32,000 nucleotides of DNA from Candidatus Hermodarchaeota archaeon (GTDB lineage Archaea; Asgardarchaeota; Heimdallarchaeia; Hodarchaeales; Hodarchaeaceae), in the NCBI GenBank assembly GCA_048886185.1, contig JBHLKY010000025.1, forward strand, positions 1-32,000, in the 5' to 3' direction. Of the stretch, positions 11,813-31,631 are shown piece by piece. A program made the translations under genes and the position numbers. The notes below the pieces were generated by a model. It had not been told where the DNA came from. It saw only the letters and a list, made by a program, of their open reading frames with translations, and ran no database searches. The first letter of the stretch is position 1, and each line of letters starts with the position of its first letter.

Positions 11813-11829
11813 ACTAAGGAGACATCAAA

Positions 11830-12282: not shown

Positions 12283-12288
12283 AAAAAT

Positions 12289-14293: not shown

Positions 14294-15061
14294 TTATGAG
14301 AAAATTGAGTTTATTTTTTCTAAAATTGACTCTAATGCTAACATCCATGTTTTTTGATTATAATAGGATAGTTGATATCTCCATCCTGCAATATTTGATT
14401 CTTCCCATTTAGTTTGTAATGAGCTTACTAAACATGAGGGAATACTATAGATTGAAAAAAACGGTTTTTTTAAATTCAGTGGTAATTTGAAGAGTTTTCT
14501 TATTTTTTTAAGAGCTTTTTTAATATTCACTATCTCAGAGACTTGAAGATACCATTCAGGTGTAATACAATCGTCTAAGGGCCCCTCAAACCAATCCAAT
14601 TGAAGTACTCTCGTTTTTTGGGACGCCCAGGTTAATAGAACTGTTACATATTGCTGTTCTCTTCCATCAGAATTATAACCGGTAATATTGATCCCAAGAG
14701 CAATACAAGGAATGTCTTCAGGGATTAATGATTTTTCCCATTGTTCAATAATTGATTTCAGACATTCTGTATCTGCTTTCTTATCATTTTCATAATTGGG
14801 GAGACAAATGATTCTTCGAGGAACCCATCTAGGATTATCATCAACCAAAACTTGGGAAAAATTTCTACGACCAGACATATGAAATTTTTTATTGGATTTG
14901 GGTACTTCAAGGAATATTGGGTGGAAATCATTGACTGGAAACTGACCAGAAATTGTACCAACAATACTCAAATCATTTGAGACAGTTACTGAATTAAAGT
15001 CTATAAGGTTTCTTAGATTTCCCCAAATAAGAGAATTTTCAATAGCTGAAAGATTAACCAA
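14294..15061 (-). CDS. Hypothetical protein (255 aa), no family recognised
   Basis: Long ORF in AT-rich DNA. TTG start preceded by aggt, 44 nt downstream of hdrB on the same strand. Confidence 0.75.
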   Translation of the reverse strand: MVNLSAIENSLIWGNLRNLIDFNSVTVSNDLSIVGTISGQFPVNDFHPIFLEVPKSNKKFHMSGRRNFSQVLVDDNPRWVPRRIICLPNYENDKKADTECLKSIIEQWEKSLIPEDIPCIALGINITGYNSDGREQQYVTVLLTWASQKTRVLQLDWFEGPLDDCITPEWYLQVSEIVNIKKALKKIRKLFKLPLNLKKPFFSIYSIPSCLVSSLQTKWEESNIAGWRYQLSYYNQKTWMLALESILEKINSIFS

Positions 15062-15105: not shown

Positions 15106-15987
15106 CTAGGGAAATGGAAGCTTAATATGATGTTGTTTAAACTCATCTGATAAATTATAGTCTAAAGCAAAGGCAAGCAGCTCAGTATAGTAAACTATGG
15201 GAATACCCTTTCCATTCTTACCGTAGTATTCTCCAGCATCTTTTCTGACAAGGAATTGACCGCTTTCATATTGTCTGAAACAGGTAGGACAAGCAACAAC
15301 CATAGCATCTGCTCCTGTTTTATTAACTTCAACAATTTTTTCCCGAATGATCTCAAGGGAGGTATTATAGTCTGTAATATATGACCCAGCGCCACAACAC
15401 ATTCCACTTTTTAAATACGTAACAGTTGTACCATCAAGAACCTGAACTAACTCATGTAAAATGATAGGATGTTCAGAATTGTCAGTCCGCAGAATTCCAG
15501 ATGGACGAAGAAGATGACATCCATAATGAATAGCAAATCGAAAATTGTTTAATGGTCTAAGAACTCTCTTTGAAATCGTATCGCGTAGTTCATGCAATAC
15601 CTGGATAATGTGACGCACTTTAATTATTCCTCTGTACTCTTTCCCCATTTCTGCAAGGAGTTTATTGATTCTAATCCTTAATTCTTCATTATTTTGAAGT
15701 TCAAAATTCACAACCTTAAGGGTCTCATAACAACCGTTACATAATGTTAGAATATCGAGATTTTCTTCTTCAGCAAGACAGAGATTCCTTGCAGCAAGAA
15801 GAAACCATGTATCTTTGTGAAAGGATTGGGAACCATTTGGATCAGGACAACATCCAAAGGGTAGATCTTTAATTTTGATGTTAAGTGCATTTAAGACTTT
15901 TCTAGATGCACTCTCAATAAAGGGATATCGTAGTGGTATCGTGCATCCTAGAAATAAAGCAAAGTCCTTACTATGGGATTCACTCAA
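15106..15987 (-). CDS. hdrB: Heterodisulfide reductase subunit B (methanogen-type)
   Basis: LFLGCTIPLRYP...GCCPDP...LCNGC and HYGCHLLRPS...CCGAG...ACPTC. TTG start with ggagga RBS. Confidence 0.92.
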   Translation of the reverse strand: MSESHSKDFALFLGCTIPLRYPFIESASRKVLNALNIKIKDLPFGCCPDPNGSQSFHKDTWFLLAARNLCLAEEENLDILTLCNGCYETLKVVNFELQNNEELRIRINKLLAEMGKEYRGIIKVRHIIQVLHELRDTISKRVLRPLNNFRFAIHYGCHLLRPSGILRTDNSEHPIILHELVQVLDGTTVTYLKSGMCCGAGSYITDYNTSLEIIREKIVEVNKTGADAMVVACPTCFRQYESGQFLVRKDAGEYYGKNGKGIPIVYYTELLAFALDYNLSDEFKQHHIKLPFP

Positions 15988-15999
15988 AGAAACATCCTC

Positions 16000-16503
16000 C
16001 TATGAAGGTCTACTGGTTTCCTCCTTCCTCGTGTTTAATTTTAGTAAATCATTAAACCCTGAAAGATTCATAATCTTCTGAGTTTCTGAAAGATCAGGAA
16101 ATTGCACTTCGGGTAGCTTTAATTTCTTTCTTCGATTTAAGATCGTTTTTGATGGTTCTTGTGTTAATCCTGTTAAATAGAGAGTTTTCATTTCATCTAA
16201 AATTCCAATAGGAGTAATACCCTTTCTTACAGAAAGATTTTTCAATTCAACCAATAAATGCGCTAAATCTACTCCCAGTGGACAACGTTGGGTACAAGTT
16301 AAACAGAAACTACAGCTCCAGACAAATGAAGATGTTAGAATTTCTTCCAATTGACCCAAGATAAGCTTTTCAATAATTAATCTAGGATTCATTTCAGAAC
16401 TGTAACGGAAAACAGGGCAACCTCCAGCGCATGTACTACATTGATAACAAACTCTGGCAGGGGAGAGAATGTGCTTCAAAACATTTTTTGTATACTCAGA
16501 CAA
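16000..16503 (-). CDS. hdrC: Heterodisulfide reductase subunit C
   Basis: CYQCSTCAGGCP, MNPRLII and WSCSFCLTCTQRCPLGV. TTG start with ggag RBS. Confidence 0.92.
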   Translation of the reverse strand: MSEYTKNVLKHILSPARVCYQCSTCAGGCPVFRYSSEMNPRLIIEKLILGQLEEILTSSFVWSCSFCLTCTQRCPLGVDLAHLLVELKNLSVRKGITPIGILDEMKTLYLTGLTQEPSKTILNRRKKLKLPEVQFPDLSETQKIMNLSGFNDLLKLNTRKEETSRPS

Positions 16504-16876: not shown

Positions 16877-18415
16877 TTAATTTTCTTCCCACATCTGAGG
16901 ATATGAACGATCTAATCCTGCGAGTTTGACACCTGTAATTGCTGCAGCATCGATAGTTAGAGCTCTCAAATCTTCTTTTGAAAGATCTTTGATAGTTTTA
17001 TGCCCAGAAAGCATGGTGAATATCTTAATCTCATCTGTCATTGCTTTCAGAACATTTACCAGACGGAGACTTGTTTTTTCGGGGTCTAACCGAGACCGAA
17101 GCTCTGGTTTGTTTGTAGTAATACCATACGGACAGTTGCCTTGATGACAAGCCATGCATGCTCTACACCCCATGGCAATTTCAGCTGCCGTACCAATTCC
17201 AACAGCGTCAGCACCAAGCGCTAATGCTTTGAAAGCGTCAGCACCATTACGAATACCCCCTAATGCAATAAGTTTGACTTTACGATAGAGACCTATATCC
17301 TTTAGAGCTTGAACCGCAGGAGGAATGCATGCAATCGTAGGAATTCCAGCATGTTGTGTGACACTCTCGGGAGATGCACCAGTTCCCCCTGTCATACCAT
17401 CGATAGATATAGCATCGACTCCTAATCCAGCAGCTATCTTAACGTCCTGATAAGGGCGGCTCGGGCCCAATTTTATTAGAATCGGTACTTTATAATCAGT
17501 AACATCTCTAATGATCTCTATCTGTGTTTTAAGATCTTCTGGATCTATTGCATCATAATATCTGGGGGGTGAAAGTGCATCTGTACCGATAGGAATACCT
17601 CTCACCTTTGCAACTTCTTCTACAACTTTTTTCCCTAGAAGATGTCCACCCATTCCAGGTTTAGCACCTTGACCTATTTTGACTTCAATTGCATCAGCAT
17701 TTTGTAAAAAATCAAGATTAACTCCCCAACGTCCTGTGGACCACTGAACTGCTAAATATCCACCAGTTCTAGCATGAGGATTACCTTTTCCGGAAATTTT
17801 AAGTTCTTCTAATGAATTAAATCCATGTACAAGAGGATATTCCTCTGGGATAGCTCCACCTTCACCTGTATTAGAAATAGTTCCCATTATATAAGCTGCT
17901 TTCGCTAAAGACATCTTTGCTTCTTTTGACAAAGCGCCAAAAGACATAGCACCAAAAACTATAGGTATACTTAGTTTAAGAGGATACTCTGCAGTTTCTT
18001 CACCAATAATTACACTAACATCACAATCCTCACGATATTTATCCAGAGGAGGAGGAGAGGCCAATTGAGAGGGAACAATTACAAAATCATCAAAGTGTGG
18101 GATAATTCGTGATGTTCCAAAACCTCTTAACAGATATTTACCCGTTTGAGCCTGATAATGAATATGTTCAACAGTTTGAAATGTCCAAAGAGATCGCGAA
18201 AAATATTCGGGTTCAGCAGGTTTGATATGAGTTGCATTATTTGGACAGAACTCCATGCAGATTCTACAACCAACACAGGCCATATCATTCCCAATTCGAA
18301 CCCTATTATCATCATCTTTTTCATAAACCCCATGTGGACATACTTCTACACATGTAGCACAATGAGTACATCTCAAATAATCAATATTTACGCAATAAGC
18401 GCCAAGAATCGTCAA
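16877..18415 (-). CDS. gltB: Archaeal-type glutamate synthase FMN-binding subunit (domain 2) with N-terminal 2x[4Fe-4S] ferredoxin
   Basis: CTHCATCVEVCP and CVGCRICMEFCP; AMSFGALS; NTGEGG; EVKIGQGAKPGMGG; DGMTGGTGAS; GGIRNGADAFKALALGAD; [3Fe-4S] motif CRACMACHQGNCPYG. Confidence 0.92.
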   Translation of the reverse strand: MTILGAYCVNIDYLRCTHCATCVEVCPHGVYEKDDDNRVRIGNDMACVGCRICMEFCPNNATHIKPAEPEYFSRSLWTFQTVEHIHYQAQTGKYLLRGFGTSRIIPHFDDFVIVPSQLASPPPLDKYREDCDVSVIIGEETAEYPLKLSIPIVFGAMSFGALSKEAKMSLAKAAYIMGTISNTGEGGAIPEEYPLVHGFNSLEELKISGKGNPHARTGGYLAVQWSTGRWGVNLDFLQNADAIEVKIGQGAKPGMGGHLLGKKVVEEVAKVRGIPIGTDALSPPRYYDAIDPEDLKTQIEIIRDVTDYKVPILIKLGPSRPYQDVKIAAGLGVDAISIDGMTGGTGASPESVTQHAGIPTIACIPPAVQALKDIGLYRKVKLIALGGIRNGADAFKALALGADAVGIGTAAEIAMGCRACMACHQGNCPYGITTNKPELRSRLDPEKTSLRLVNVLKAMTDEIKIFTMLSGHKTIKDLSKEDLRALTIDAAAITGVKLAGLDRSYPQMWEEN

Positions 18416-18437
18416 GATCTTTTACCTACGACATTTT

Positions 18438-19112
18438 TTACCTTTTTTTTGAATAAAATGGTTTATCAGTCTCAGCAATGATTTTTGTAAAATCTTCTGG
18501 TCTTGCTTTAATTTTATAGACAGAAAAGAATTGTCGAAGAAAATCTATATCATCAGATGAGAGATCTTCAATCTTAGTATTGTTTCCAAGACTTTTCCAA
18601 TGACCCTTAATGAAAATACGACCTGAAATTAAGAAGTTACCAATCCTTTCACCAGCATCTCCTAATAAAATAATGTTCCCAGCAAGCATATAAGTTCCAA
18701 GATCATTACCTGTGACATTTTCTACAAGAATTGTCGCACCTTTATTCATTGTTCCCAGAAAATCTCCACAATTTCCAGAAATAATTACTTTTCCACCATA
18801 ACAATATGGTGCTGCGCAATAACTGGCATTTCCTTTTACTATAATTTCTCCATTAATCATGTTGTCTCCAACAAATCTCCCAACATTACCTTCGATGATT
18901 AAATGGGCACCTGAATTTAACATACCTGCATAATCACCTACAGAACCCTTAATAATAATTTTTCCTCGTCTTAATCCAGAGGCAATACCATCTAGATGAT
19001 CACAGTTAGCAATTGTGATAGTTTCATTCTCTTTAAGTTTATTCTTAATTTCTTGACTAATGTCTTTTAATTCAGCGATTTTAGTTGTTGTACTAACAGT
19101 CACTGCATCCAT
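18438..19112 (-). CDS. Glutamate synthase domain 3 (GXGXG beta-helix) subunit
   Basis: Repeated GxxG beta-helix turns (IKGSVGDYAG, IEGNVGRFVG, VKGNAS, ISGNCGDFLG, GDAGERIG). ATG 19112 behind gaggtg is preferred over GTG 19121. Confidence 0.9.
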   Translation of the reverse strand: MDAVTVSTTTKIAELKDISQEIKNKLKENETITIANCDHLDGIASGLRRGKIIIKGSVGDYAGMLNSGAHLIIEGNVGRFVGDNMINGEIIVKGNASYCAAPYCYGGKVIISGNCGDFLGTMNKGATILVENVTGNDLGTYMLAGNIILLGDAGERIGNFLISGRIFIKGHWKSLGNNTKIEDLSSDDIDFLRQFFSVYKIKARPEDFTKIIAETDKPFYSKKR

Positions 19113-20274
19113 TACATCCACCTCGCATTTTTAATGACTTAATATTCTCTTTTTGGGTGAAGAGTTCCATAAATCGACTTTTTGCTTCTGGAAGCCGGTT
19201 CTCGTCAGTGAGCGATTCGAGCGAATAGATTAAAAGCGAATCAAAGGTTTGTGACCGTTCTCGACGTTGTTTCTCCGAACAGGCAGCTGAAATCGCCTTT
19301 AAATCCGCTTCCTCCTTAGTTTCAAGTAATCCCAAATTTAAACAGTTATTAAGGAAATTCTGTCCTTTCATGTTCCAAGGAATTAGGGTAGCATATCCTT
19401 CAGGGGAACCTGTTTGACCAATTGAAATGTCAGCCCTCTCAGCTAGAAAATCTGTACACCTTGCACAACCCTTTCTTAGATACTTTTGTTTTTCTTCCAG
19501 TGGGAAGGTCGCATTTTTACCTGTGGAAAGCTTAATTTCCAGAGTTTCACCATTAGCAGAACTAGTGATACTTATAATTTCAGCAGGAGATATTCCAAGA
19601 TGACTTGATAAATTTTTAAGAAGAGCTGTTTCATAATATCCTGAACAGAATAAGCCGATTACAATACCTAAAGATTTCTGTAGAATAGATAAACCTTCTA
19701 ATTTTGATTCATTGACTCTTCTGATAGCTTGAGTAACACACGGAGGCCCAACAATAGCAATTTGATTAAATCCATTGGTCAAAATCTCATGATAGAGGTT
19801 TGATAGAATTGGATTCCATATTCTTTGGTTACCAGAAACTTTATAGAGTTCTTCAATTGATCTAACAACTCGTGTATATGGTGTTCCGTCCCATCTATTC
19901 ACATCTGTGATTAATGCAGCGTCAATAAACCCGTTTACAAAACCTGCTGAAAGAAGATCAGTAATAATCTCATTTATGTGATTATTTGTGGCATAACGTG
20001 TTGATTTTGCTGATATCACTCTAATAATTTCGTTTTTTTCCCAATCTATTAAGCGAGGACAACTCTCGGCGCACATTCCTTCACAAAAGGAACACGTATC
20101 AATGTCAACAACCGATAAACCAACAGTTTTTGTCTTAAAAACAAAAGAAGGATGTGCCATATCAGGTTTAAACTCTAAACGTCCACGGGAGCAAGCAGCA
20201 ACACACATGCCACAACCAGCACATCGATCCAAATTCCAAACTTTATTTTCGAGATCTAATTGCTTATAGAACAT
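19093..20274 (-). CDS. FrhB/FdhB-family (coenzyme F420-binding type) subunit with N-terminal ferredoxin, divergent
   Basis: CAGCGMC...CSFCEGMCAESCP; IVGPPC; IVIGLFC; GCARCTDF.AERADISIG. ATG 20274 behind ggaggt. Confidence 0.8.
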   Translation of the reverse strand: MFYKQLDLENKVWNLDRCAGCGMCVAACSRGRLEFKPDMAHPSFVFKTKTVGLSVVDIDTCSFCEGMCAESCPRLIDWEKNEIIRVISAKSTRYATNNHINEIITDLLSAGFVNGFIDAALITDVNRWDGTPYTRVVRSIEELYKVSGNQRIWNPILSNLYHEILTNGFNQIAIVGPPCVTQAIRRVNESKLEGLSILQKSLGIVIGLFCSGYYETALLKNLSSHLGISPAEIISITSSANGETLEIKLSTGKNATFPLEEKQKYLRKGCARCTDFLAERADISIGQTGSPEGYATLIPWNMKGQNFLNNCLNLGLLETKEEADLKAISAACSEKQRRERSQTFDSLLIYSLESLTDENRLPEAKSRFMELFTQKENIKSLKMRGGCNGCSDC

Positions 20275-23200
20275 CAATTTTACCTCCAATACGCCTCGGT
20301 TCCTTGTAAAATGGTTCACGAGAGCCAAGAGATTTAACTAACTCTGTAAATTCTGTTATCAATTGAGCAAAGCGGTTTCCTTCACTAGCTGATATCCATT
20401 CAAGAGTCAAACGCCTTGAATCAATTCCGATTGAAGATAAGGCTTTCTTCATTTTCTCAACACGTTCTTCTGCATATGAATTACCAGAAATGTAATGACA
20501 ATCTCCGGGGTGACAACCACTAACAAAAACACCATCAGCGCCTTCTAGAAAAGCCCATAGTAAGAAGAAGGGATCTATTCGTCCACTGCACATTACTCGA
20601 ATTATGCGAATACTAGAGGGGTATTGAAAGCGTGAAATCCCTGCAAGATCTGCTCCAGCATAAGAACACCAATTACAACAAAAACCAATAATTTTGGGTT
20701 CATTAGCCGGAAAGGGTCCATTCAAGGCTTCTGAAATTTGGTTTAAAATCTGGAGATCAGTGAAGCCCTGCATCGAAATTGCTTTTGCAGGGCAAGCGAC
20801 TGCGCACACTCCACATCCTTTACAAATAGCTTCATTTACATGAGAAATCAAATCTATTGGATGAAAGCTTATTGCGCCATATGGACATACATTGCCACAG
20901 GTACCACATCCAACACAAAGCGTTGGATCAACTATAGCAATGTTGGCTTCTGCAATAACATAACCCAATTGCATGGGAATTGAAGCACGAGCAGCAGCTC
21001 CAGAAGCTTGGGCAATTGAATCACTAACGTTTTTCGGTGAATGTGCGGTTCCACAAACAAAAATCCCATCAGTGGCAAAATCAAGAGGGCGGAGTTTTAC
21101 ATGAGCTTCTTGAAAAAATCCATCTATTCCCAATGGTATTTTAAAAAGCTGACTTAATTCCTTTGCACTAGAAGAATTCACAAGTGGTGTAGTTAATAAT
21201 ATTAAGTCAGCTGGATAACTCCGATTCTCTCCAGTAAACATGTTATGGAATGATATTGTGATTTCAGCATCATTGATATTTACGTTGGGTTTCTTATCCT
21301 CTTCATATCGAATGAAATATACTTGTGGAAGTTTACGTACTTCTCGATAATAGTCTTCAGCAGATATTTCAACCAATCGAAGGTCTTGATGTAGAATGTA
21401 AATATGAGCGTTTGGATAGCTTTGACGTAATTTTTTTGCTGTTTTTAGAAGAGCTGCACATCCAACTCGACAACAATATGTTCGATTATCATTACCTTCT
21501 TTCTCTTTAGACCCAACGCAGCTTATTAGAAATATATTACTTATCTTTTTAGGTTGTTTATTTTTCTTAAGAGCCTGTTCAAATTCTAGTATAGTCATTA
21601 TGTTTTCATGATGGGAATAGCCATAATATCCTACTGGTTTGAATTCTTCACCACCAGTTGCTATAATAACGGTTCCCACATCGATTGTTTTGTTGTTTTT
21701 GCCTGATAGAGTAATTTCAAATTTCCCGAAGTATCCTCCAACATTTTCAATCTTCGTATTTAGGTAGATGTTAATTTTTGGATTATTAGATATAAGACTG
21801 ATTTTTTCTTTAAGTAAATCTTCAGCATATTGATCCGTAGGGAATAAAGTCGTTAGTTTATGTAAAAATCCCCCTAATTGTTTCTCTTTCTCCACTAAAT
21901 GAACGATAAACCCCATATTTGCAAGATTATTCGCAGCAGTTATTCCTGCGATTCCTCCACCAATAATTAGTGCTTCTGGAATCACTTTAATTTGCTTTTT
22001 TGCAGCTGGTTCAAGTAATCGTGCTTTAGCAACTGCCATATTTACAAGAACTTTGGCTTTATCAGTAGCATTTTCCCAATCATGGGAATGCACCCAAGAG
22101 CATTGGTCCCGGATATTTGCCATCTCAAAAAGATATTCATTCAAACCTGCTTCCTTACAGGTTGTTCGAAATAATGACTCATGAGTTCTTGGAGAACATG
22201 AAGCAACAACAATCCTGTTAAGATTATATTCTTGAATAGCATTCTTTATGAGAGTCTGATTTGCATCTGAACAAGTAAAAAGATTATTTGTAGCAAATTC
22301 AACATTAGGCAAACCTTTTGCATGTTCTGTTACTTTTTCAACATCAAGGTACCCCCCAATATTATGACCACAATGACATATAAAAACTCCAATTCGTGGT
22401 TCCTGATCAATTATATCTTGTGATTTGATTGATATTTCTTCAGCTACTTCTTTAGAGACTCTAAAATCATTTCTATTTATTACAGCCAAAGCCTTTGAAG
22501 CAGCTCCACTTGCTTGGGAAACTGAATCTGGAATGTCTCTTGGACCCGCACTACAACCACAAAGATAGATACCATCAACTGTGGTTTCTAACGGTGCAGA
22601 TACGGGATCTTTTTCCCTAAAGAAGCCATAATCATCAAGTTCCACTCCTAAAATTTCTGATAATCTCTTATTGCTTGCTGGGGCTTTAATGGCCGATGAT
22701 AAAACCACTAAATCCACCTCTAACTCTGCAGCCTTCCTTTTAATAATGTCTTCATAGAATATGATTAAATTATTATTACTTTTTTGATTAATCTCTGCTG
22801 GACGACTCCTTATGAAGTTGATACCAATTTCATGTTTTGCTCGCTGATAGTATTCTTCAAAGCCTTTTCCATATGCTCGCAAATCCATAAAGAAGATGTA
22901 AGGTGTGATTTCAGCATGATGTTCCTTTGCAATCATTGCTTGTTTTGTTGCCCACATACAGCATACGCGAGAACAATAAGGTTGATTTATTGTAACATCG
23001 CGAGAACCTACACATTGAATCCATGCAATGGTTCTAGGGATTTTTTTATCTGAAAGGCGACGAACTTGACCTTCTGTTGGTCCTGAGGCAGATAATAACC
23101 GTTCAAATTGCATTCCTGTTATAACATTAGGATAAATACCATATCCTAGATTATATTTCACAGTTGGGTTAAATTCTTCAAAGCCTGTGGCTACTATAAT

Positions 23201-23788
23201 CGCATCTACATTAATTTCCAGTATTTCAGGCTTCTGGTCACGATCAATAGCTTTAGGAGCACAAACTTTCTCACATTTACCACAATTTTTGCAAAGATCT
23301 TTATCAATAGTTGCAACATTAGGTACTGCTTGAGCAAAATATCTATAGATAGCTCTACGGGTACCTATATTGTGATCAAATTCATTAGGGATTTTTACTG
23401 GACAAACTTCAAAACAAGCTCCACATCCCGTACACTTCTCAGTATCAACATAACGAGGGTGTTTTTTTATAATGACTTCAAAATTTCCTTTAAATCCATT
23501 AACTTTTTCGACAGTAGCATATGTTATAAGTTCAATGTTTTGATTACGACCTACTTCGACCATTTTGGGAGCTTCAATGCATATTGAACAATCATTTGTA
23601 GGGAGGGTTTTATCAAGTTTTGCCATCGCCCCCCCAATTGCAGGGGCAGAATCTACTAAATAAACATGGATCATTTGGTTAGCCATATCGAGTGCAGCTT
23701 GCATACCTGCTATCCCTCCACCAATAACTAAAACTCCACCAGTAGTCTCCGTTTTTTCGAAGTTATTTTTTGTCATTATCTTCGGCAT
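20264..23788 (-). CDS. hdrA: Tandem double-FAD HdrA (HdrL-type) fused to a C-terminal MvhD domain
   Basis: Two GGGIAG modules; TNDCSIC; CTGCGAC; CVGSR..CSRVCC; CHCG; C-terminal ferredoxin; then GFCCNWCSYAGADLAG..MCSGR..GCHPGDCHY. Confidence 0.93.
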   Translation of the reverse strand: MPKIMTKNNFEKTETTGGVLVIGGGIAGMQAALDMANQMIHVYLVDSAPAIGGAMAKLDKTLPTNDCSICIEAPKMVEVGRNQNIELITYATVEKVNGFKGNFEVIIKKHPRYVDTEKCTGCGACFEVCPVKIPNEFDHNIGTRRAIYRYFAQAVPNVATIDKDLCKNCGKCEKVCAPKAIDRDQKPEILEINVDAIIVATGFEEFNPTVKYNLGYGIYPNVITGMQFERLLSASGPTEGQVRRLSDKKIPRTIAWIQCVGSRDVTINQPYCSRVCCMWATKQAMIAKEHHAEITPYIFFMDLRAYGKGFEEYYQRAKHEIGINFIRSRPAEINQKSNNNLIIFYEDIIKRKAAELEVDLVVLSSAIKAPASNKRLSEILGVELDDYGFFREKDPVSAPLETTVDGIYLCGCSAGPRDIPDSVSQASGAASKALAVINRNDFRVSKEVAEEISIKSQDIIDQEPRIGVFICHCGHNIGGYLDVEKVTEHAKGLPNVEFATNNLFTCSDANQTLIKNAIQEYNLNRIVVASCSPRTHESLFRTTCKEAGLNEYLFEMANIRDQCSWVHSHDWENATDKAKVLVNMAVAKARLLEPAAKKQIKVIPEALIIGGGIAGITAANNLANMGFIVHLVEKEKQLGGFLHKLTTLFPTDQYAEDLLKEKISLISNNPKINIYLNTKIENVGGYFGKFEITLSGKNNKTIDVGTVIIATGGEEFKPVGYYGYSHHENIMTILEFEQALKKNKQPKKISNIFLISCVGSKEKEGNDNRTYCCRVGCAALLKTAKKLRQSYPNAHIYILHQDLRLVEISAEDYYREVRKLPQVYFIRYEEDKKPNVNINDAEITISFHNMFTGENRSYPADLILLTTPLVNSSSAKELSQLFKIPLGIDGFFQEAHVKLRPLDFATDGIFVCGTAHSPKNVSDSIAQASGAAARASIPMQLGYVIAEANIAIVDPTLCVGCGTCGNVCPYGAISFHPIDLISHVNEAICKGCGVCAVACPAKAISMQGFTDLQILNQISEALNGPFPANEPKIIGFCCNWCSYAGADLAGISRFQYPSSIRIIRVMCSGRIDPFFLLWAFLEGADGVFVSGCHPGDCHYISGNSYAEERVEKMKKALSSIGIDSRRLTLEWISASEGNRFAQLITEFTELVKSLGSREPFYKEPRRIGGKIDVL

Positions 23789-23824
23789 TTTAGTTACATC
23801 TACTTGAAAAATGCTTTTTAATAC

Positions 23825-24253
23825 TCAAAACCAATTTTGATTGGCAATTCTACCTTCTTTTTCATCTTTTATGATTTCAATGACATCTTTTACTACATCT
23901 TGGGGATTAAACTTGTTTTTCACAATCCTCACTCCCCTTTTGTGTCGAATTATTGGAAAAACGTTTGAATAATTTTCATAGATGGGAATAATTTCTAATC
24001 CTGAATTAAAAGCTAAATTGACTTCTTCACACATCTCTATGACATTTTGGGCTTCTTCTGAACAGAAAAAAATACAAACATCAATCAGATTATTAGAGAA
24101 ATTAAGGCACCTACAAAGGCTGTCTTTATCCCTATCAGTTTCACACAAGATAATTCTATCAAAATCCGAATAAGTTTTGATTTCTTCAATGAAATCAAGA
24201 ACTTTCCAACTTTGCTTGTCCTTTTCGCTATAACTAATAAATAAGTTTAACAT
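23825..24253 (-). CDS. Stand-alone TIR-domain protein
   Basis: LFISYSEKD (beta-A), CIFFCSEEA (beta-C), EEVNLA with the putative catalytic Glu, and IIPIY (beta-D). ATG 24253 behind aaggaagg; alternative ATG 24277 overlaps the gdh stop. Confidence 0.8.
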   Translation of the reverse strand: MLNLFISYSEKDKQSWKVLDFIEEIKTYSDFDRIILCETDRDKDSLCRCLNFSNNLIDVCIFFCSEEAQNVIEMCEEVNLAFNSGLEIIPIYENYSNVFPIIRHKRGVRIVKNKFNPQDVVKDVIEIIKDEKEGRIANQNWF

Positions 24254-24266
24254 TTTTTTTCTTCCT

Positions 24267-25460
24267 TTATGATTCATCCTCTAAAGCGGATAGGAGTCTT
24301 TGTTGAGCAATATCTTTAGCTATTATCCGTGGGATGAGGCCAGAATCAATTATTTTTTCACTAATTAATTTAACATTCTTCTTGATTTTTGATTCAATTA
24401 ATACAAAAGCTTCTGTAGCATCCATTTTTCGATACTCAGCAAAAGAACCAATAATCCCTCCAGCATTGACGAGAATATCAGGGAGAATAATTATACCTTT
24501 TTCAAATAATTTTCTTTCAGCATCAGGAGTTGAACTATTATTAGCTCCTTCAACAATCAATTTTGTTTTAAGTTGAGAACTAGTATCCTCATTTACTGCA
24601 CAATCATATGCACAGGGAATAAATACATCACATTCTATTTTATAAATCTCGTCTCTGGGTAAAATCATACCCTCTTTCGAACGTTTTAAGGAACGTTCTT
24701 TACTCATAGCATATGCAGATCCTCTAATCTTTGTTATATCGATACCTTCTGGATTATAGAGTGTTCCCCAGTTGTCATTAACAGCAACTATATGTGCCCC
24801 TTTACTATTCAAATATTTAGCAGTTCCATAACCTACCTTACCAAAACCTTGGATTACTACACGTGTTTCAGATAAACAATGAGGACATTTAATTGAATCA
24901 TGTAGAACTTGAAGGCTTGTTTCAAGAGCGACTCCAATTCCGAATCCAGCCATATCATTTTTATAAGCAATTCCACCAAGGTCAGTTGGTTTTCCAGTGG
25001 CTCCTAGTAGATCACCAACAGTTTCAACAAAAGCTGCAATTTCCTTTTCACCAACATTTATGTCTGGACCAGCTATATATCTGTTAGGAACAAAAGGTGC
25101 TATTTTATCTGCAAAAGCTTTAATATACTTGATTGAGTCAATTTCATATGGATTTGCACGAATACCAGCTTGTGCTCCTCCAAATGGGATTTCTGCTAAA
25201 GCACACTTCCAAGTCATTAATCTAGCGAGTTTAAAAATACCTAAAGGAGTAATTGTAGGAGAAATTCTAATTCCTCCCTTCCCTGGGCCTAATGTAGTAT
25301 TATCAATTATTAAGTACCCTTGCATCGATATATCAGGATCATAGACTTGAACTACTTTTTCAGGCCCCCATTTATCTAGAAAAGCTGAAATATTAACATT
25401 ATTTAATGCATCAAGAATATTTTCACTGCTTAGTATTGTTTTCTCATCGTGAGAAGACAT
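24267..25460 (-). CDS. gdhA: Glu/Leu/Phe/Val dehydrogenase family protein (GDH-like) with catalytic Lys replaced by Gln
   Basis: GPGKGGIR, MTWKCAL, PFGGAQAG, GPDINVG, TGKP, QGFGKVG, VEGAN and PDILVNAGG. ATG 25460 behind ggag is preferred; upstream starts at 25475 and 25499 are possible. Confidence 0.88.
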   Translation of the reverse strand: MSSHDEKTILSSENILDALNNVNISAFLDKWGPEKVVQVYDPDISMQGYLIIDNTTLGPGKGGIRISPTITPLGIFKLARLMTWKCALAEIPFGGAQAGIRANPYEIDSIKYIKAFADKIAPFVPNRYIAGPDINVGEKEIAAFVETVGDLLGATGKPTDLGGIAYKNDMAGFGIGVALETSLQVLHDSIKCPHCLSETRVVIQGFGKVGYGTAKYLNSKGAHIVAVNDNWGTLYNPEGIDITKIRGSAYAMSKERSLKRSKEGMILPRDEIYKIECDVFIPCAYDCAVNEDTSSQLKTKLIVEGANNSSTPDAERKLFEKGIIILPDILVNAGGIIGSFAEYRKMDATEAFVLIESKIKKNVKLISEKIIDSGLIPRIIAKDIAQQRLLSALEDES

Positions 25461-25499
25461 TTTTGACTTCTCCATCAGCTTTAATCCATCTAGATTCAA

Positions 25500-25775
25500 T
25501 ATTAATTAAAAAAAAAGAACATAAAACTATTATGTACAAAATTAATAAAAAAAATCTCATTACTGACAAAAAATGAAATTAATCTATATCAAAAATGATA
25601 TTAAGAGTTCTATATTTTTATTTAATGGTTCATAAAAAAGGATACATAGAGTATCTAGCACATTATTTTTCACAAATTTGATACAATTTAAAAAATTTAT
25701 GTTCCAAAATGATTAAATCTATATTTATCAATTTTATATTACTAGAATTAGACGAAAAAAAGATGAATTGTATGG
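25500..25775. promoter_or_regulatory. Divergent promoter region between the gdh-led operon and the regulator
   Basis: Very AT-rich non-coding gap between head-to-head genes, containing three imperfect AAAATGA..TTAA..TCTATAT repeats. Individual TATA boxes could not be assigned reliably. Confidence 0.55.
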
Positions 25776-26858
25776 ATGGATTTCTGTTTCATGAGAAAGA
25801 TTCTTGAAGATCAAATGAACCTAAAAATTTTAGAATTAGTATGTGCGGGTGAAGGAGTTACTGCTAATACTACTGAGCTTTCAAAAATTCTAGGTAAACA
25901 TAGAAATACAATAAAAAATAATATTGATAAGCTTTTTGAACACAAAATTATAGAAAAACCTTTTTATCCTTTCTCTTATCTTTTCAAAGAATGGCCTCTT
26001 CTTGTCATTGAAAAAGCGACTTTTCAAAGAAATTTGAAAACAAACGTATTTATTGAAAAGGATCCAGTTATATGGGCAGCTTTTTTTGTCAAGGAAAATG
26101 AATATAATACATTATTAATTGAATTTCATAAGGACCTACATTCTTATCAAAATTGGAAAGAAAGTATAATCACAGAGGCAAAAATTACTCTCAAGGAAGA
26201 AATTTATCCTTCAGAAGCATATTTTTTAACAATGAAAAATCTGATTAAATATGATCCAACTATCGCAGTTCAAATACTAGAAATTAATTATAAGAATCAA
26301 CATCATACAGTATTAAATGGATTAAGAATTAATGACTTCAGACTTGAACTCATTAAACTTCTTTTAAATGGGAAAGGGATTAGAACTAATGAATATCACA
26401 TAAGTGAAATACTTAATGTCCATCGACGTACTGTTAAACGTCGGATTGATAAATTGTTGGATCATAGAGTAATTGATAATCCAGTTTGTTGTTTCCCTCG
26501 AGTTTGGGTACCACCAGAATACTTTTTGGTCTTCTCTCTCTTTGAAATAAAAAATAAGAAGGAATTATTATTGAGAGCATTAAAAAATGATCCACATATA
26601 CCAATTCTTTTCAGAGCCATAGTAGATAGATTTAATCTTGCTTTATTTGGCAATTTTTACAAAATGGAAGATTTTTTAGAGTGGGCTGAGGAATATGATC
26701 AAAGATTTCCAGGATGTATTGGAGCCGTGAAAAATACATTTCTCTCACCCTCCATGACATTCTCCATTGCCCATAACTATGTTACTCTCACTTTTCTTCA
26801 GAATATTGCTAATCGTTTACGAGGTAAGGCTTTTGTAGAAATGATGAAAGAAAAGTAA
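25776..26858 (+). CDS. Transcriptional regulator with two tandem winged-HTH + effector (Lrp/AsnC-like) modules
   Basis: Two HTH segments (NTTELSKILGKHRNTIKNNIDKL and NEYHISEILNVHRRTVKRRIDKL), each followed by a RAM-like alpha/beta domain. The start may be ATG 25791. Confidence 0.75.
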   Translation: MDFCFMRKILEDQMNLKILELVCAGEGVTANTTELSKILGKHRNTIKNNIDKLFEHKIIEKPFYPFSYLFKEWPLLVIEKATFQRNLKTNVFIEKDPVIWAAFFVKENEYNTLLIEFHKDLHSYQNWKESIITEAKITLKEEIYPSEAYFLTMKNLIKYDPTIAVQILEINYKNQHHTVLNGLRINDFRLELIKLLLNGKGIRTNEYHISEILNVHRRTVKRRIDKLLDHRVIDNPVCCFPRVWVPPEYFLVFSLFEIKNKKELLLRALKNDPHIPILFRAIVDRFNLALFGNFYKMEDFLEWAEEYDQRFPGCIGAVKNTFLSPSMTFSIAHNYVTLTFLQNIANRLRGKAFVEMMKEK

Positions 26859-27221: not shown

Positions 27222-27680
27222 TTATTTTTGCTTTAATATTTCTAATGCCTTTACAGCTCCAAGTATAATTGCTTCTGGTTTAGGTGGGCACCCTGGAACT
27301 TTGATATCAGTATTAACAAGATTAACTACAGGAGCGCGAACAGAATACCCATCTTTAGCAAAAATACCTCCACTACACGCACATGTCCCAATTGCAACAA
27401 CAACTTTCGGTTCTGGGACTTGACTAACTACCCTCTTAAAGGATTCTACTAATTGTGCTGGAACAGTTCCAGTTACTAATAGAATATCACTATGGCGCGG
27501 ATTATTCATTAATTTCATGCCAAAACGTTCAATGTCATATCGGGGAGTAATACAAGCAGCAACTTCAATATCACAGCCATTACAACCACCACAAGGCATA
27601 TGGTAAACCCAAGGAGACTTTTTCCGTGCCCACGAAATAATTTTATCAAGAGATCCGAAATTCTTCTTGTTTTTTATCAT
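27222..27680 (-). CDS. Group 4 [NiFe]-hydrogenase small subunit (NuoB/EchC-like)
   Basis: CGGCNGCDIEV, RYDIERFG, PRHSDILLVTG, GTCACSGG and VPGCPPKPE. Confidence 0.93.
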   Translation of the reverse strand: MIKNKKNFGSLDKIISWARKKSPWVYHMPCGGCNGCDIEVAACITPRYDIERFGMKLMNNPRHSDILLVTGTVPAQLVESFKRVVSQVPEPKVVVAIGTCACSGGIFAKDGYSVRAPVVNLVNTDIKVPGCPPKPEAIILGAVKALEILKQK

Positions 27681-27691
27681 TAAATTCTACC

Positions 27692-28354
27692 TCAATGCCT
27701 TAAAGTGGCATAATCCATCACTAAAACGGATCCAGTTGCTTTATATTGCCCATTTATGACTGATACGAAAATTATAGCGATGAAAATCTGTAGTCCGTTT
27801 AGTATAATCGATATTGCTGGTGTCACAAGACCAAGTGAATTGATTACAATATGTGCTCCATTTTGGATAGCCAATAAACCAACTCCTGTCTTAAAGAGAT
27901 TATTCTCTGTAATCACTAGAGCAAAACCAAGAATCAAAATCATACTTCCCAAAGTAAGAACTGAAATTTCTATCTGAGAGGTTATTATAGTAGGAAAGAC
28001 ATTCATGATAACGAAATAGCAGGATCCGAGAACAACGAGAAAGATTTCATAAACTACCATGGAAGAAAAGATCTTTCGGGTTGGTTCATTTGTAGTTTTA
28101 TAAATACACACCCATAAGATACTAGCGGAAATGATGACTGAAAGAATTGTTACGATGTTGGATATCACATGAGGACTGATGATCAAGCTATTATCCTCCA
28201 TCTCAAGGCTCAAATAAATATTGGAAAGTAATAAGGTAACTATCATCCAATAGAGGCTGTTAGTTGGTCGTTTAGCCTGGTAGGAGAAAATACCTGGTAT
28301 ATTAAGCATAAGGGCCATAAGTAGATTTAATTGGAGAAATGCCATTATCAACAC
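27692..28354 (-). CDS. Hydrogenase membrane subunit (HyfE-like)
   Basis: Multi-pass hydrophobic protein with GLLAIQNG and a C-terminal LRH, located inside the hydrogenase operon. Confidence 0.65.
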   Translation of the reverse strand: MLIMAFLQLNLLMALMLNIPGIFSYQAKRPTNSLYWMIVTLLLSNIYLSLEMEDNSLIISPHVISNIVTILSVIISASILWVCIYKTTNEPTRKIFSSMVVYEIFLVVLGSCYFVIMNVFPTIITSQIEISVLTLGSMILILGFALVITENNLFKTGVGLLAIQNGAHIVINSLGLVTPAISIILNGLQIFIAIIFVSVINGQYKATGSVLVMDYATLRH

Positions 28355-28912
28355 CTAATACAGTTTTTTTATATGTAAACCTAATTCATTTGCTTTCATT
28401 TTACGACATTTTGGGCAGTAAAGACGGGCTATTTCAAATTCATTACGAATGATTTTTCTCTTGTTCTCATCTATAATTGGTGTATCCTCGAGTTTCTTTT
28501 GTATCCAATCAAGATGTTTAATTGTTGCAAAAGATTCCTTACAGTTTTCACATAACTGCATATCAAGGATTATTATTAATTCAGAAGTATCCTGATCAGC
28601 TTGAACACTCATATCAAAAACCTGACTCATTTCTAATGATTCTGTTGGACAGCTTTTTACACATGTTTCACAAAAAATACATGCTCCAGGATCATAATAT
28701 AAATACCTTTTACTCTCATTATCAACGAATTTATAAGCAAAGGAAGGACATACTTGTAAACAGGCACCACAGCCAATACATGTATCTTGGTCAAGCTGAA
28801 CTTTACCCTTGAATCCTTTTGGTAAATGATCAGGCGGAGAAGCGGGAAATTTAGTTGTAGAAGGATTTAAGAATGATTTAAAGACCTCTACTACTGTTTT
28901 AATATTTGGCAT
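28355..28912 (-). CDS. Hydrogenase ferredoxin-like subunit (NuoI/HyfH/EchF-like)
   Basis: CIGCGACLQVCP and CIFCETCVKSCP, plus CENC...CPKC. Confidence 0.9.
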   Translation of the reverse strand: MPNIKTVVEVFKSFLNPSTTKFPASPPDHLPKGFKGKVQLDQDTCIGCGACLQVCPSFAYKFVDNESKRYLYYDPGACIFCETCVKSCPTESLEMSQVFDMSVQADQDTSELIIILDMQLCENCKESFATIKHLDWIQKKLEDTPIIDENKRKIIRNEFEIARLYCPKCRKMKANELGLHIKKLY

Positions 28913-28943
28913 ATGGGATTCTCCTTAAACTCTTGTTAAAATT

Positions 28944-29945
28944 TCAAATATTTGTAGTGATAACTAGTAAAAGTGGATCTACAAGTGCTAAAACAACAAT
29001 GCTTGTGAGGACTATTTTAAATGCTTGATCTATTCTAAATCGTGGACTAATTGCATCAATGAAGCTTATTACAAAAACTAACCCAAAACATTTAATGAGA
29101 AAAACAATAATATTAAGAGGAACTTGAAGATTATTACCACCACCAAGGAAAATAAGTGTGAAAAGACCAGAAAAAGCAAACCACATAATATATTTTGTAA
29201 CCACGATCAAACCTAGAAGAGCTCCACTGTATTCTGTGAGTGGGCCATCTATAATTTCCTGACGGGCCTCAACCATATCAAAAGGACGAATACCAAGCTT
29301 AACAATTAAACAAACCAGAACTGCGACGGCTGCGAATGGAAATTTAAAGATGAACCACATAGAATTGGTTTGTACCTCCTCAATTGCCGCAAAGTTGAAA
29401 GCACCGAGAATATTCTGTTGTAACATAAATAAGCTTGGTGTCAATAGAGCGAGGGCAAGTGGTAATTCAACCGCAATGATCATAGATCCCTCTCGACTTG
29501 CGCCAACTGTTGAAAATGGATTACCTGAAGCTGTACCACCAATAATTAGTCCAATAGCTGGAAAGAGTAAGAATGTTATTACTAGGACTAGATCTCCGTA
29601 CTCTAGCAATTCACCTAGTCCACTCAGAAATGATTCTCCAAGTAGTCTGATTGGAAAAAGAAGGCATACCATATATGCCCCTGTTAGAGCAATTAAGGGA
29701 CCCAAATAAAAGTAAAAACGATTCGCTGTTACTGGTACTATCTGATCTTTAGAGAAAAGTTTGAGGAGATCACTCCAAGACTGGCTGAATGGGGGACCAC
29801 GCCGAGATTGAAAACGAGCTATTACCTTTCTGTTGAACCAGGACATTACTCCTCCAAAAAAGATGGCACCTATCAGGCCTGGGAAGATCAATATGTCAAA
29901 TGTTAAATATATTAGATCAATCAGGATATTAATAATTTCACTCAA
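28944..29945 (-). CDS. Hydrogenase membrane anchor (NuoH/HyfC/EchB-like)
   Basis: RKVIARFQSRRGPP, DLLKLFSK, GASRE, PFDMVEARQEIIDGPLTEYSG and PRFRIDQ. Confidence 0.92.
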   Translation of the reverse strand: MSEIINILIDLIYLTFDILIFPGLIGAIFFGGVMSWFNRKVIARFQSRRGPPFSQSWSDLLKLFSKDQIVPVTANRFYFYLGPLIALTGAYMVCLLFPIRLLGESFLSGLGELLEYGDLVLVITFLLFPAIGLIIGGTASGNPFSTVGASREGSMIIAVELPLALALLTPSLFMLQQNILGAFNFAAIEEVQTNSMWFIFKFPFAAVAVLVCLIVKLGIRPFDMVEARQEIIDGPLTEYSGALLGLIVVTKYIMWFAFSGLFTLIFLGGGNNLQVPLNIIVFLIKCFGLVFVISFIDAISPRFRIDQAFKIVLTSIVVLALVDPLLLVITTNI

Positions 29946-31201
29946 GAATTCAACCTTCTAAAGTTTTTGATATTATTTTGAGCAAGTTCTCTTAACGAAA
30001 GTTGTTTTGTTTTATTTCCATTAATATCTTTAATAAAAATCACTCGATCAGTACAGGAAAGACAAGGGTCGATGCTTCCAAAGATTATTGGTGCATCAGC
30101 AATAGTATATCCTTTTAACATTGAAGGAACGGCATAATTATTTATTAAAGATGGTGTCCTAATTCGTACTCTTTCAGGACAGGCTGTATCATTAGTAATA
30201 ATATGATATGCTAATTCACCACGAGGAGGTTCGCTTTTGAATAAAGCTTCTATGCCACTTTCTATTGGTGGTAGACTCTCAAGTGCGATCTCATTACTTG
30301 AACTATCAGAGAGTTTATCCAAACTTTGATCAATGATCGAAAGACTCTCAAAGAGCTCGTGAACACGGACGACTAATCGGGCGAGAACGTCACCATCCTT
30401 TTGAACACAGATTTTCCAATCAAGTTCATCATATGCCAAGATTGGACTGTCTTTTCTTGAATCAATGTTCAATCCAGAAGCCCTAGCTACTGGACCAACA
30501 ACACCAAATCTCCGTGCATCATTAGAAGTAGTGACTCCTATACCTTTAAGGCGAGATTCTACTATTCGATCGGATAATGCTTGTGATGCGATATTACTAA
30601 CTATTTTCTTAACTTCTCGTGTCATTTTACGAATCTTAGGAATCAAATCATTCGGAATGTCCCGTCGGACGCCACCAATTGTCTGCATTCCATAATTGAC
30701 CCTATTTCCAGAAATCAACTCCAATAAATCCATCACAGCTTCACGATCACGCCAAGAGTGCATAAAAAGTGTCTCAAAACCTATTAAATCAGCTGCCACA
30801 CCAAGCCATAGTAAATGGGAGTGCAATCGTTCTAATTCAAGAAAGATGGTTCTGATATATCGTGCTCGATCAGGAATTTCAGATTCTACTCCTAAAAGTC
30901 GTTCCACACAACCAGTATATGTAGTTGCATGATGATTGCTACAAATCCCGCAAACTCGTTCTGCTATGAATATATTGCGATTATAATTTCTTTTTTCCAT
31001 AATATGTTGAATTCCTCTATGACTGAATCCAACTTTGATATTTGCCTCAATGATTGTTTCACCATCACAGTGGAGAGTTAAGAAAACTGGTTCAATCAAT
31101 GCAGGATGGAATGGACCAATAGGAACAGTTAAAACTCTTTTAATTTCTGAAGTGGGAATTTCTATTGGTTCTTGATTTTTCTTTGCGCTCATTCTCATCA
31201 T
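29942..31201 (-). CDS. Group 4 [NiFe]-hydrogenase large subunit (NuoD/EchE/HycE-like)
   Basis: Both Ni-binding motifs are present (ERVCGICSNHH and DPCLSCTDR), together with PIGPFHP..EP, PPRGEL and RTPS. A C-terminal extension follows the second motif. Start at ATG 31201, 31198 or 31192. Confidence 0.93.
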   Translation of the reverse strand: MMRMSAKKNQEPIEIPTSEIKRVLTVPIGPFHPALIEPVFLTLHCDGETIIEANIKVGFSHRGIQHIMEKRNYNRNIFIAERVCGICSNHHATTYTGCVERLLGVESEIPDRARYIRTIFLELERLHSHLLWLGVAADLIGFETLFMHSWRDREAVMDLLELISGNRVNYGMQTIGGVRRDIPNDLIPKIRKMTREVKKIVSNIASQALSDRIVESRLKGIGVTTSNDARRFGVVGPVARASGLNIDSRKDSPILAYDELDWKICVQKDGDVLARLVVRVHELFESLSIIDQSLDKLSDSSSNEIALESLPPIESGIEALFKSEPPRGELAYHIITNDTACPERVRIRTPSLINNYAVPSMLKGYTIADAPIIFGSIDPCLSCTDRVIFIKDINGNKTKQLSLRELAQNNIKNFRRLNS

Positions 31202-31202
31202 C

Positions 31203-31631
31203 TCAGGATACTTTTGGCCATTCATATGGAAGAATCAATCGGTAAGGAGTAGGATGACCTATGAACTCAACTCCTACCATTTCACAAATTTCTCTCTCAA
31301 AAAAATTTGCTGCAGGAATCAATGGAGTAATCGATTTAATTGAAGAATTATTTGCTGGAATCCAAGTCCGTAATATAACAATAAAATTTTTTAGAATCTT
31401 TTCTAGGGAAAAGATATACATTAACTCAATTTTATTGAATTGAATACGTGAAGCATTGATTGTAACAAGTCTAGCTTTTTGTTGAGTAAATAAATATGAA
31501 GGAACATGAGCTATACCCGATGATTTGATTTCCACTCCATATTGGTGGGGTTGTACCTCCCAGTATTTAATAAAATCAGGTCCGCATTCTGTTTTGATTG
31601 CTTCAAGTGTTTCTTTAACAATACTATCCAT
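31203..31631 (-). CDS. Hydrogenase NuoC/EchD-like subunit
   Basis: SITPLIPAANFFEREICEMVGVEFIGHP..RLILPYEWP. ATG 31631 behind gaggtg. Confidence 0.88.
   Translation of the reverse strand: MDSIVKETLEAIKTECGPDFIKYWEVQPHQYGVEIKSSGIAHVPSYLFTQQKARLVTINASRIQFNKIELMYIFSLEKILKNFIVILRTWIPANNSSIKSITPLIPAANFFEREICEMVGVEFIGHPTPYRLILPYEWPKVS

Follow-up and report, generated by a model that had tools for sequence, protein, structure and literature searches.

A glutamate dehydrogenase-like protein with glutamine in place of the catalytic lysine in an Asgard archaeon, a candidate ligand-binding pseudoenzyme

What does a glutamate dehydrogenase (GDH) become when its catalytic lysine is replaced and the residues that bind its substrates stay in place? 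This question is raised by a gene from the Candidatus Hermodarchaeota archaeon assembly GCA_048886185.1. We analyzed the first 32,000 nucleotides of contig JBHLKY010000025.1, referred to below as the window, in which positions 24267-25460 of the minus strand encode a GDH-like member of the ELFV (Glu/Leu/Phe/Val) dehydrogenase superfamily that carries glutamine, Q97, at the catalytic lysine position. We call this 397-amino-acid protein (P0001) GDH-Q, and we examined it through its open reading frame (ORF), Pfam domains, alignments to GDHs in the PDB, orthologues and ratios of nonsynonymous to synonymous substitution (dN/dS). At a probability of roughly 55%, we favor the reading that GDH-Q is a GDH-derived pseudoenzyme, a ligand-binding protein that would serve as a subunit for regulation, sensing or scaffolding.

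A fixed glutamine at the general-base position

The frame of GDH-Q is free of stops, and the translation of 24267-25460 on the minus strand contains AEIPFGGAQAGIRAN; an alternative TTG start lengthens the frame to 25499. We assigned proteins to the ELFV superfamily by an N-terminal dimerization and substrate domain (PF02812) together with a C-terminal NAD(P)-binding Rossmann domain (PF00208), and GDH-Q matches both above the Pfam cut-offs, at 79 and 139 bits, respectively. Among solved structures, hexameric GDHs match it best (E 4e-51 and below). When GDH-Q is aligned with these structures, Gln97 falls on the lysine of their IPYGGAKGG motif, and the conserved GGAKxG reads GGAQAG. This is the position of the GDH general base, K125 in the Clostridium symbiosum enzyme and K80 in leucine dehydrogenase (LeuDH), and GDH-Q therefore lacks the lysine of the GGxKGG motif by which a competent GDH (EC 1.4.1.2-4) is recognized. 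The codon is CAA, at 25170-25172 on the minus strand. An earlier note on this DNA, made by reading its letters, had reported the PFGGAQAG motif and the CAA codon, and translation, Pfam and the structural alignment bear it out; only its coordinates for the codon, 25168-25170, need correcting to 25172-25170.

The rest of the active site is retained, much as that note had described. The substrate-binding residues K89, K113 and S380 have equivalents in K61 (within GPGKGG), K85 (within MTWK) and S339, and the serine of the NAGGxxxS motif is present. The catalytic aspartate D165 corresponds to D133 in GPDIN, and the GxGxxG dinucleotide-binding loop is intact as GFGKVG. We scored nine such sites across the family, namely K89, K113, K125, D165, the three glycines of GxGxxG, the asparagine of EGAN and S380. 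Canonical GDHs read KKKDGGGNS over these positions, and the clade of glutamine-bearing proteins to which GDH-Q belongs (the Gln clade) reads KKQDGGGNS. We consider GDH-Q a divergent member of its family because it scores far under the NCBIfam cut-offs for GDH equivalogs, with 178.5 bits against GdhB_Halo (cut-off 620) and 166 bits against GdhA_Arch (cut-off 750).

The consequence of losing this lysine can be estimated from what is known of the mechanism. Structural work by Stillman and Rice is said to place 2-iminoglutarate, formed from ammonia, on the GDH reaction path, with no Schiff base between substrate and an enzyme lysine. In LeuDH, the homologous Lys80 is described as a general base and water activator in the summary of Sekimoto 1993 given by PMC12018205, which departs from the Schiff-base role that the earlier note had given this residue. 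The same source puts the activity left in K80A, K80Q and K80R mutants at ~1.5% or less and describes partial rescue by ammonia, less for K80Q than for K80A. These mutants are altered at the same superfamily position as GDH-Q, and glutamine is among the substitutions tested; unlike them, GDH-Q is a natural, fixed variant with co-adapted changes in its pocket rather than a laboratory mutant. Loss of the general base would thus be predicted to lower catalysis at least 100-fold, and Q97 should leave the binding sites intact yet impair turnover severely, if perhaps not completely. Because a lysine-to-glutamine LeuDH keeps a trace of activity that ammonia can raise, "dead" is too strong a word for GDH-Q.

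Before any of this can be given weight, the glutamine has to be real. One miscalled base, C for A, would turn AAA into CAA, and the earlier note had allowed for such an error. However, CAA stands at the lysine position in all six species of the genus whose genomes have an orthologue, the source and five others, each independently assembled. In the whole genomes of these five, the orthologues share 81-92% amino acid identity with GDH-Q and all encode PFGGAQA(G/A) using CAA. We also searched 5.8 billion proteins for homologues. Among the 120 matches listed, the 8 nearest cluster representatives (74-98% identity) have glutamine, 108 have lysine, and the remainder have methionine (P0009), threonine (P0094) or arginine (P0101 and P0106). 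Contigs from four sediment-metagenome runs, which come from one study and may include the source run, span the codon and show no change at 25170-25172. They include a co-occurring strain, ~9% divergent, in which the adjoining position 25173 has changed synonymously (GCA>GCT, alanine) and CAA is kept. The CAA common to six species and the metagenome contigs free of variants refute a sequencing or assembly error. A decaying pseudogene is no better an explanation, since the frame is intact, synteny is kept and dN/dS is low. We reject both, and the chance that either accounts for the glutamine is negligible.

The substitution pattern shows what selection has preserved. Pairwise dN/dS (ω) of GDH-Q across the six species is 0.08-0.18 at dS of 0.18-0.75 (Nei-Gojobori). 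The lowest values lie in the substrate and oligomerization domain (0.09 for residues 20-160 and 0.07 for residues 45-140), compared to 0.16 in the NAD domain and C-terminus. The neighboring Hdr, FrhB and GltB genes evolve under matching ratios (0.08-0.26), and at the amino acid level (dN) GDH-Q has diverged to a similar extent as the canonical GDH of these genomes. We conclude that the gene encodes a functional protein under purifying selection and is not decaying. The two properties that the earlier note had proposed to look for in orthologues, fixation of the glutamine and purifying selection, are thus both present.

Active-site losses across a largely Asgard family

We placed GDH-Q in a quickly built maximum-likelihood tree (132 rows), with three canonical GDHs as the outgroup and no Thermus sequence among the rows. 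The family forms a clade apart from canonical GDHs. Its named members almost all carry Asgard labels (Hodarchaeota or Hodarchaeales, Thorarchaeota, Promethearchaeota and Harpocratesius), with one Bathyarchaeota-labelled record. The glutamine-bearing proteins make up a single clade of 14 rows with a Shimodaira-Hasegawa-like approximate likelihood ratio test (SH-aLRT) support of 100. The catalytic lysine has been lost at least 4 to 6 times, the lower figure counting the starred branches of the tree, and always within one subclade of 32 rows. Outside this subclade, 96 of 97 family members keep all nine scored sites, and the K125 lysine is present in 97 of 97. Inside it, 29 of the 32 members carry a lesion, and just 3 of the 18 members that lie outside the Gln clade retain every site.

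The lesions differ from lineage to lineage. Over the whole subclade, K89 has changed to I, E, C, T or N, K113 to T or S, K125 to Q, M, T, R, F or A, D165 to E or N, and the second glycine of GxGxxG to N, D or E. The nearest lysine-bearing sisters of the Gln clade, P0014 and P0022, have glutamate at D165 and aspartate at the second loop glycine. P0009 combines methionine at K125 with asparagine in the loop, and P0101 and P0106 combine threonine or asparagine at K89 with arginine at K125. In genome G005, the GDH-like copy has glutamate at K89 and phenylalanine at K125; in G003, these positions hold isoleucine and methionine. The copies in G011 are altered at K89 (cysteine), K113 (serine), K125 (alanine), D165 (asparagine) and the loop glycine (glutamate). 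Because different essential residues were lost independently while the proteins persist, we read this pattern as the signature of a subclade in which catalysis is probably no longer maintained by selection. The subclade amounts to a natural experiment, in which varied catalytic residues disappear by lineage under strong purifying selection, and this combination points to a changed job rather than decay.

G011 is a complete genome from the same genus. Its two heavily degenerate GDH-like copies, with the loop GFENIG, lie ~11 kb apart, and each has its own Lrp-like gene (L020, G011:C1:384000-403999; also L011 and L013).

The Gln clade has its own fixed changes beyond Q97. Eight positions are fixed there in a state unlike that of lysine-bearing members. 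Among them, A131G and M134I flank the D165 equivalent, and G169D and T170M fall within the loop that corresponds, in the alignment, to the GGSxGR-EATG segment of canonical GDHs. This looks like remodeling of the pocket rather than decay. We also considered whether a compensating lysine has moved into the pocket. The candidate, K167, aligns with the arginine of GGSxGR and was rejected, as it is not fixed within the clade.

Every Gln-clade genome also encodes a canonical GDH of 447-465 amino acids. The only one found in the source genome is on contig C2 (L001, 904-2247) and has the motif GGGKGG. Elsewhere the two kinds of gene are closer together. Degenerate copies adjoin a canonical, lysine-bearing GDH in G005, in G003 and on a Harpocratesius-labelled contig, and in G018 and G020 a 429-amino-acid canonical GDH is encoded ~10 kb further downstream, on the contig and strand of the GDH-like gene. 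The one in G018 directly follows the gene of an orphan protein, which recurs beside the family and is described below.

Regulatory subunit, weakened enzyme or new enzyme

How would a GDH without its general base be used? From the lesions seen across the family, the co-location with canonical GDHs and two precedents from Thermus, we infer that activity has been lost, that ligands are still bound and that the role is regulatory or that of a scaffold. In the proposed mechanism, GDH-Q would keep the ELFV fold, the lysines that bind glutamate and 2-oxoglutarate and the NAD(P) loop in the absence of the general base, and selection would preserve a non-catalytic role, or that of a near-pseudoenzyme. 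Most likely, GDH-Q would respond to the binding of NAD(P)(H), glutamate and/or 2-oxoglutarate and relay that state to another protein. This partner could be a canonical GDH, in a hetero-oligomer comparable to Thermus GdhA/GdhB, or the product of neighboring genes, with the 255-amino-acid orphan, a TIR-like protein, a tandem Lrp-like protein and an Hdr/GltB-like complex as the candidates. The earlier idea of a ligand-binding, dead GDH is supported in part, by fixation of the glutamine, the retained binding residues, the separate canonical GDH and the sister lineages, with their lesions and their adjoining canonical GDHs; the word "dead" is the part that goes too far.

One close precedent is GdhA of Thermus thermophilus, an inactive regulatory subunit of the hetero-hexameric GdhA-GdhB GDH (PDB 3AOE). 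As the earlier note had suggested, it is a fitting example of a non-catalytic GDH derivative. Both proteins are GDH homologues with a retained fold, and the loss of catalysis known for GdhA is predicted for GDH-Q; in five of the contexts described above (G005, G003, the Harpocratesius-labelled contig, G018 and G020), the degenerate relatives of GDH-Q are also co-located with a canonical GDH. However, GDH-Q is probably not an orthologue of GdhA. It belongs to a separate, mostly Asgard clade, and the two chains of 3AOE (E 5e-46 and 2e-40) are no closer to it than other GDHs are. Furthermore, GDH-Q is encoded by the first gene of an Hdr/FrhB/GltB-like operon that includes a TIR-like gene.

Another precedent is ADLP, an alanine dehydrogenase-like pseudoenzyme through which Thermus thermophilus detects NAD+/NADH and controls a CoA transferase. 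Its inactivity may stem from replacement of a catalytic lysine, with NAD(H) binding kept for regulation (bioRxiv 10.1101/2025.10.31.685773). ADLP is likewise an amino-acid dehydrogenase homologue with a replaced catalytic lysine, and the proposed logic is the same. Alanine dehydrogenase, on the other hand, is not an ELFV family member, the partner differs, and ligand binding has been demonstrated for ADLP and is predicted for GDH-Q.

A further parallel exists in Bacillus subtilis, where RocG and GudB serve as "trigger enzymes" that control GltC and the gltAB operon. There, too, a GDH-family gene is tied to a transcription factor and glutamate synthase genes, a tie that in the Asgard case is one of gene neighborhood. 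RocG is catalytically active and GltC belongs to the LysR-type regulators, whereas the potential partner of GDH-Q is Lrp/AsnC-like and has putative ligand-binding domains of its own.

Several observations weigh against a pseudoenzyme. In the source genome, the canonical GDH is unlinked to GDH-Q, with nothing like the tandem arrangement of Thermus. Support for the 32-row subclade is only moderate (SH-aLRT 83, in a quick tree). Some of its lesions, such as K89 to isoleucine where the lysine is retained, resemble a switch of substrate more than a loss of activity. Moreover, the Gln clade is the mildest case, with a single catalytic residue altered, and the residual, ammonia-assisted activity of K80Q and K80A LeuDH, as given in the account cited above, shows that such an alteration can leave some function. 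This last point leads directly to the idea that GDH-Q is a slow or conditionally active GDH, in which free ammonia or a neighboring residue serves as the base and activity is low or gated by high ammonium. Such activity could suffice in a slow-growing archaeon, the K89, K113, D165 and S380 equivalents and the NAD(P) loop are all retained and highly constrained, and the operon's glutamate synthase domains 2 and 3 would themselves need free ammonia, because none of the scanned operon ORFs showed an amidotransferase domain. We nevertheless regard a slow GDH as unlikely. Sister lineages have lost D165, K113, a GxGxxG glycine or several of these together, a canonical enzyme is available in every Gln-clade genome, and the lysine is kept by all 97 family members outside the subclade.

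A different way to account for the same residues is that GDH-Q has become a new enzyme, which would use the ELFV scaffold and NAD(P)H for another chemistry or substrate that needs no general-base lysine. One example would be the reduction of a 2-oxo acid or imine without water activation, feeding the Hdr/GltB-like complex. The eight clade-specific positions could reflect a pocket reshaped for this purpose, purifying selection is strong on the substrate domain, and the isoleucine at K89 in other members of the subclade is a LeuDH-like change. Yet GDH-Q keeps the glutamate-specific K89 and serine, and independent lineages have exchanged the lysine for Q, M, T, F, A or R, replacements so chemically unrelated that they argue against one new catalytic solution. 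We know of no ELFV-family enzyme that works without the general-base lysine, and none turned up in our literature searches. A new enzyme therefore seems to us quite doubtful, and we continue to favor a ligand-binding pseudoenzyme.

If GDH-Q is a sensor of glutamate, 2-oxoglutarate or NAD(P)H, it would offer a handle on how nitrogen status is coupled to electron flow in uncultivated, amino-acid-fermenting archaea. A more ambitious proposal is that an Asgard group, under Hodarchaeales and allied labels, has repeatedly turned this dehydrogenase family into metabolite sensors. GDH-Q would then read glutamate or 2-oxoglutarate together with NAD(P)(H) and, with the TIR-like, orphan and tandem Lrp-like proteins, would control an electron-bifurcating HdrA-MvhD/FrhB complex to which a glutamate synthase dependent on ammonia is coupled. 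We put this forward as speculation and think it improbable in its entirety; if true, such control would be a new nitrogen and redox regulatory architecture in the archaea most closely related to eukaryotes.

Inactive GDH-like regulatory subunits are already known as a kind, and hardly any pseudoenzymes of amino-acid dehydrogenase origin are on record beyond GdhA and ADLP of Thermus. The present case stands apart as a separate, largely Asgard family with repeated lineage-specific loss of the active site, an invariant Lrp-like partner gene and linkage to the orphan. The Gln clade further differs by its linkage to a TIR-like gene and an Hdr/FrhB/partial glutamate synthase operon. Our literature searches, which covered open-access papers, found no description of an archaeal or Asgard GDH pseudoenzyme. 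Public records name these genes "Glu/Leu/Phe/Val dehydrogenase" or "glutamate dehydrogenase", and metabolic reconstructions would count them as GDH, which calls for caution in annotation.

The conserved operon and its surroundings

Gene order around GDH-Q is fully conserved in the Gln clade. A divergent Lrp-like gene is followed by GDH-Q, the TIR-like gene, HdrA2-MvhD, an FrhB-like gene, a GXGXG gene, a gene for a ferredoxin plus GltB flavin mononucleotide (FMN) domain, HdrC-like and HdrB-like genes, and finally the 255-amino-acid orphan. The Lrp-like gene, at 25776-26858 on the plus strand, encodes a tandem Lrp/AsnC-like protein of 360 amino acids with two units of helix-turn-helix plus beta-alpha-beta-beta fold, recognized from weak helix-turn-helix matches and a structure model. 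The AlphaFold2 (AF2) model is of medium confidence, with a predicted local distance difference test (pLDDT) score of 64. Foldseek relates it to Lrp/AsnC proteins with probability 1.0, and it matches the two-unit protein NirDL over its full length. The regulator that the earlier note had seen opposite GDH-Q is thus Lrp/AsnC-like by its structure model. A gene for an Lrp-like protein of ~360 amino acids lies divergently upstream in 6 of the 6 public contigs looked up, and every family context examined has one; the copy on a Thorarchaeota-labelled contig is 48% identical to that in the window. A search for operators in the intergenic region (25461-25775) returned only AT-rich, low-information repeats.

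Directly downstream, the TIR-like gene (23825-24277, minus strand; 150 amino acids) overlaps the stop of GDH-Q. Its assignment, which agrees with the TIR protein named in the earlier note, comes from synteny, from language-model features (0.95 with TIR_2 clusters) and from structure (TM score 0.82 to an archaeal TIR_2 cluster), the latter two drawn from the Atlas. The gene is kept throughout the Gln clade, and a copy in G003 (37% identity) sits between the orphan and the canonical GDH. A TIR domain, which handles NAD, is unusual inside a metabolic operon. Neither the 150-amino-acid protein nor the orphan had a match in Pfam, NCBIfam or PADLOC scans.

The remaining operon genes, all on the minus strand, encode redox proteins. 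An HdrA2-like flavoprotein of 1174 amino acids (20264-23788; NF040770 HdrA2, 1258 bits) is fused to an MvhD/FlpD domain (PF02662). It is followed by an FrhB/FdhB-like iron-sulfur flavoprotein of the F420 type (19093-20328; Pfam and NCBIfam scans) and, from domain scans, a GXGXG protein resembling domain 3 of the glutamate synthase large subunit or FwdC (18438-19121). Next come a protein with an N-terminal ferredoxin domain and the glutamate synthase FMN domain, GltB domain 2 (16877-18415; PF01645, 369 bits), an HdrC-like gene (16000-16503) and a gene for an HdrB-like CCG-domain protein (15106-15987), the last two also identified by domain scans. The earlier description of a glutamate synthase operon holds for GltB domains 2 and 3, although the operon also encodes the HdrA2-MvhD, FrhB-like and HdrC/HdrB-like proteins. 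The two GltB domains are encoded by separate genes beside the FrhB-like and HdrA-MvhD partners. The scanned ORFs include no class II amidotransferase domain, and an ammonia-dependent or a reverse, glutamate-oxidizing reaction is possible for this partial glutamate synthase. Joining of FrhB-type subunits to glutamate synthase has been proposed before for methanogens (PMC3448663).

The orphan gene (14294-15061, minus strand), recognized by its homologues and synteny, belongs to a family of proteins of 255-270 amino acids with invariant Trp, Cys, Pro and Glu positions and a ...DCITPEW... core. All 43 homologues come from Asgard-labelled sources, save one with a Bathyarchaeota label. Both in the window and in L024 the orphan gene comes last in the operon, and it directly follows the GDH-like gene in L021, L022, L023 and G003. 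Relatives of the window orphan are encoded at 9044-9808 of L021, 11209-12021 of L022 and 9483-10277 of L023, and those right after the ELFV genes of L021 and L022 are 49% and 33% identical to it. Its AF2 model is confident (pLDDT 84). Foldseek against the PDB gave no match at E <= 0.001, the Atlas gave no usable match, and the best hit of a wide VIA-align search, a PARP WGR domain with Z of 5.0, is within the noise range. A complex prediction for GDH-Q and the orphan scored 0.10, which is below the mark and is evidence neither way.

Compared over window positions 16877-26858 and L014-L016, operon dS is 0.25-1.2, several-fold below the 0.8-2.4 or saturated values of the canonical gdh locus in the same genome pairs (L001 and L027-L031). 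The nearest genome also shifts along the operon, from G021 for the FrhB, GXGXG and GltB genes to G018 or G019 for GDH-Q and the regulator. Taken together, the low dS and the shifting nearest genome suggest that the operon was recently exchanged or recombined between species.

Other redox genes flank this region. On the plus strand, 8708-13314 holds a second HdrA-like gene (1034 amino acids), then a separate MvhD/FlpD gene (150 amino acids) and a pyridine-nucleotide-disulfide oxidoreductase-like gene (341 amino acids), and the window thus has two different HdrA/MvhD arrangements on opposite strands. Just beyond the Lrp-like gene, 27222-31225 on the minus strand encodes a group-4-type membrane [NiFe] hydrogenase or Nuo-like set, made up of a small subunit (PF01058), a 2x[4Fe-4S] protein, a NuoH-like protein and a large subunit (PF00346 and PF00374).

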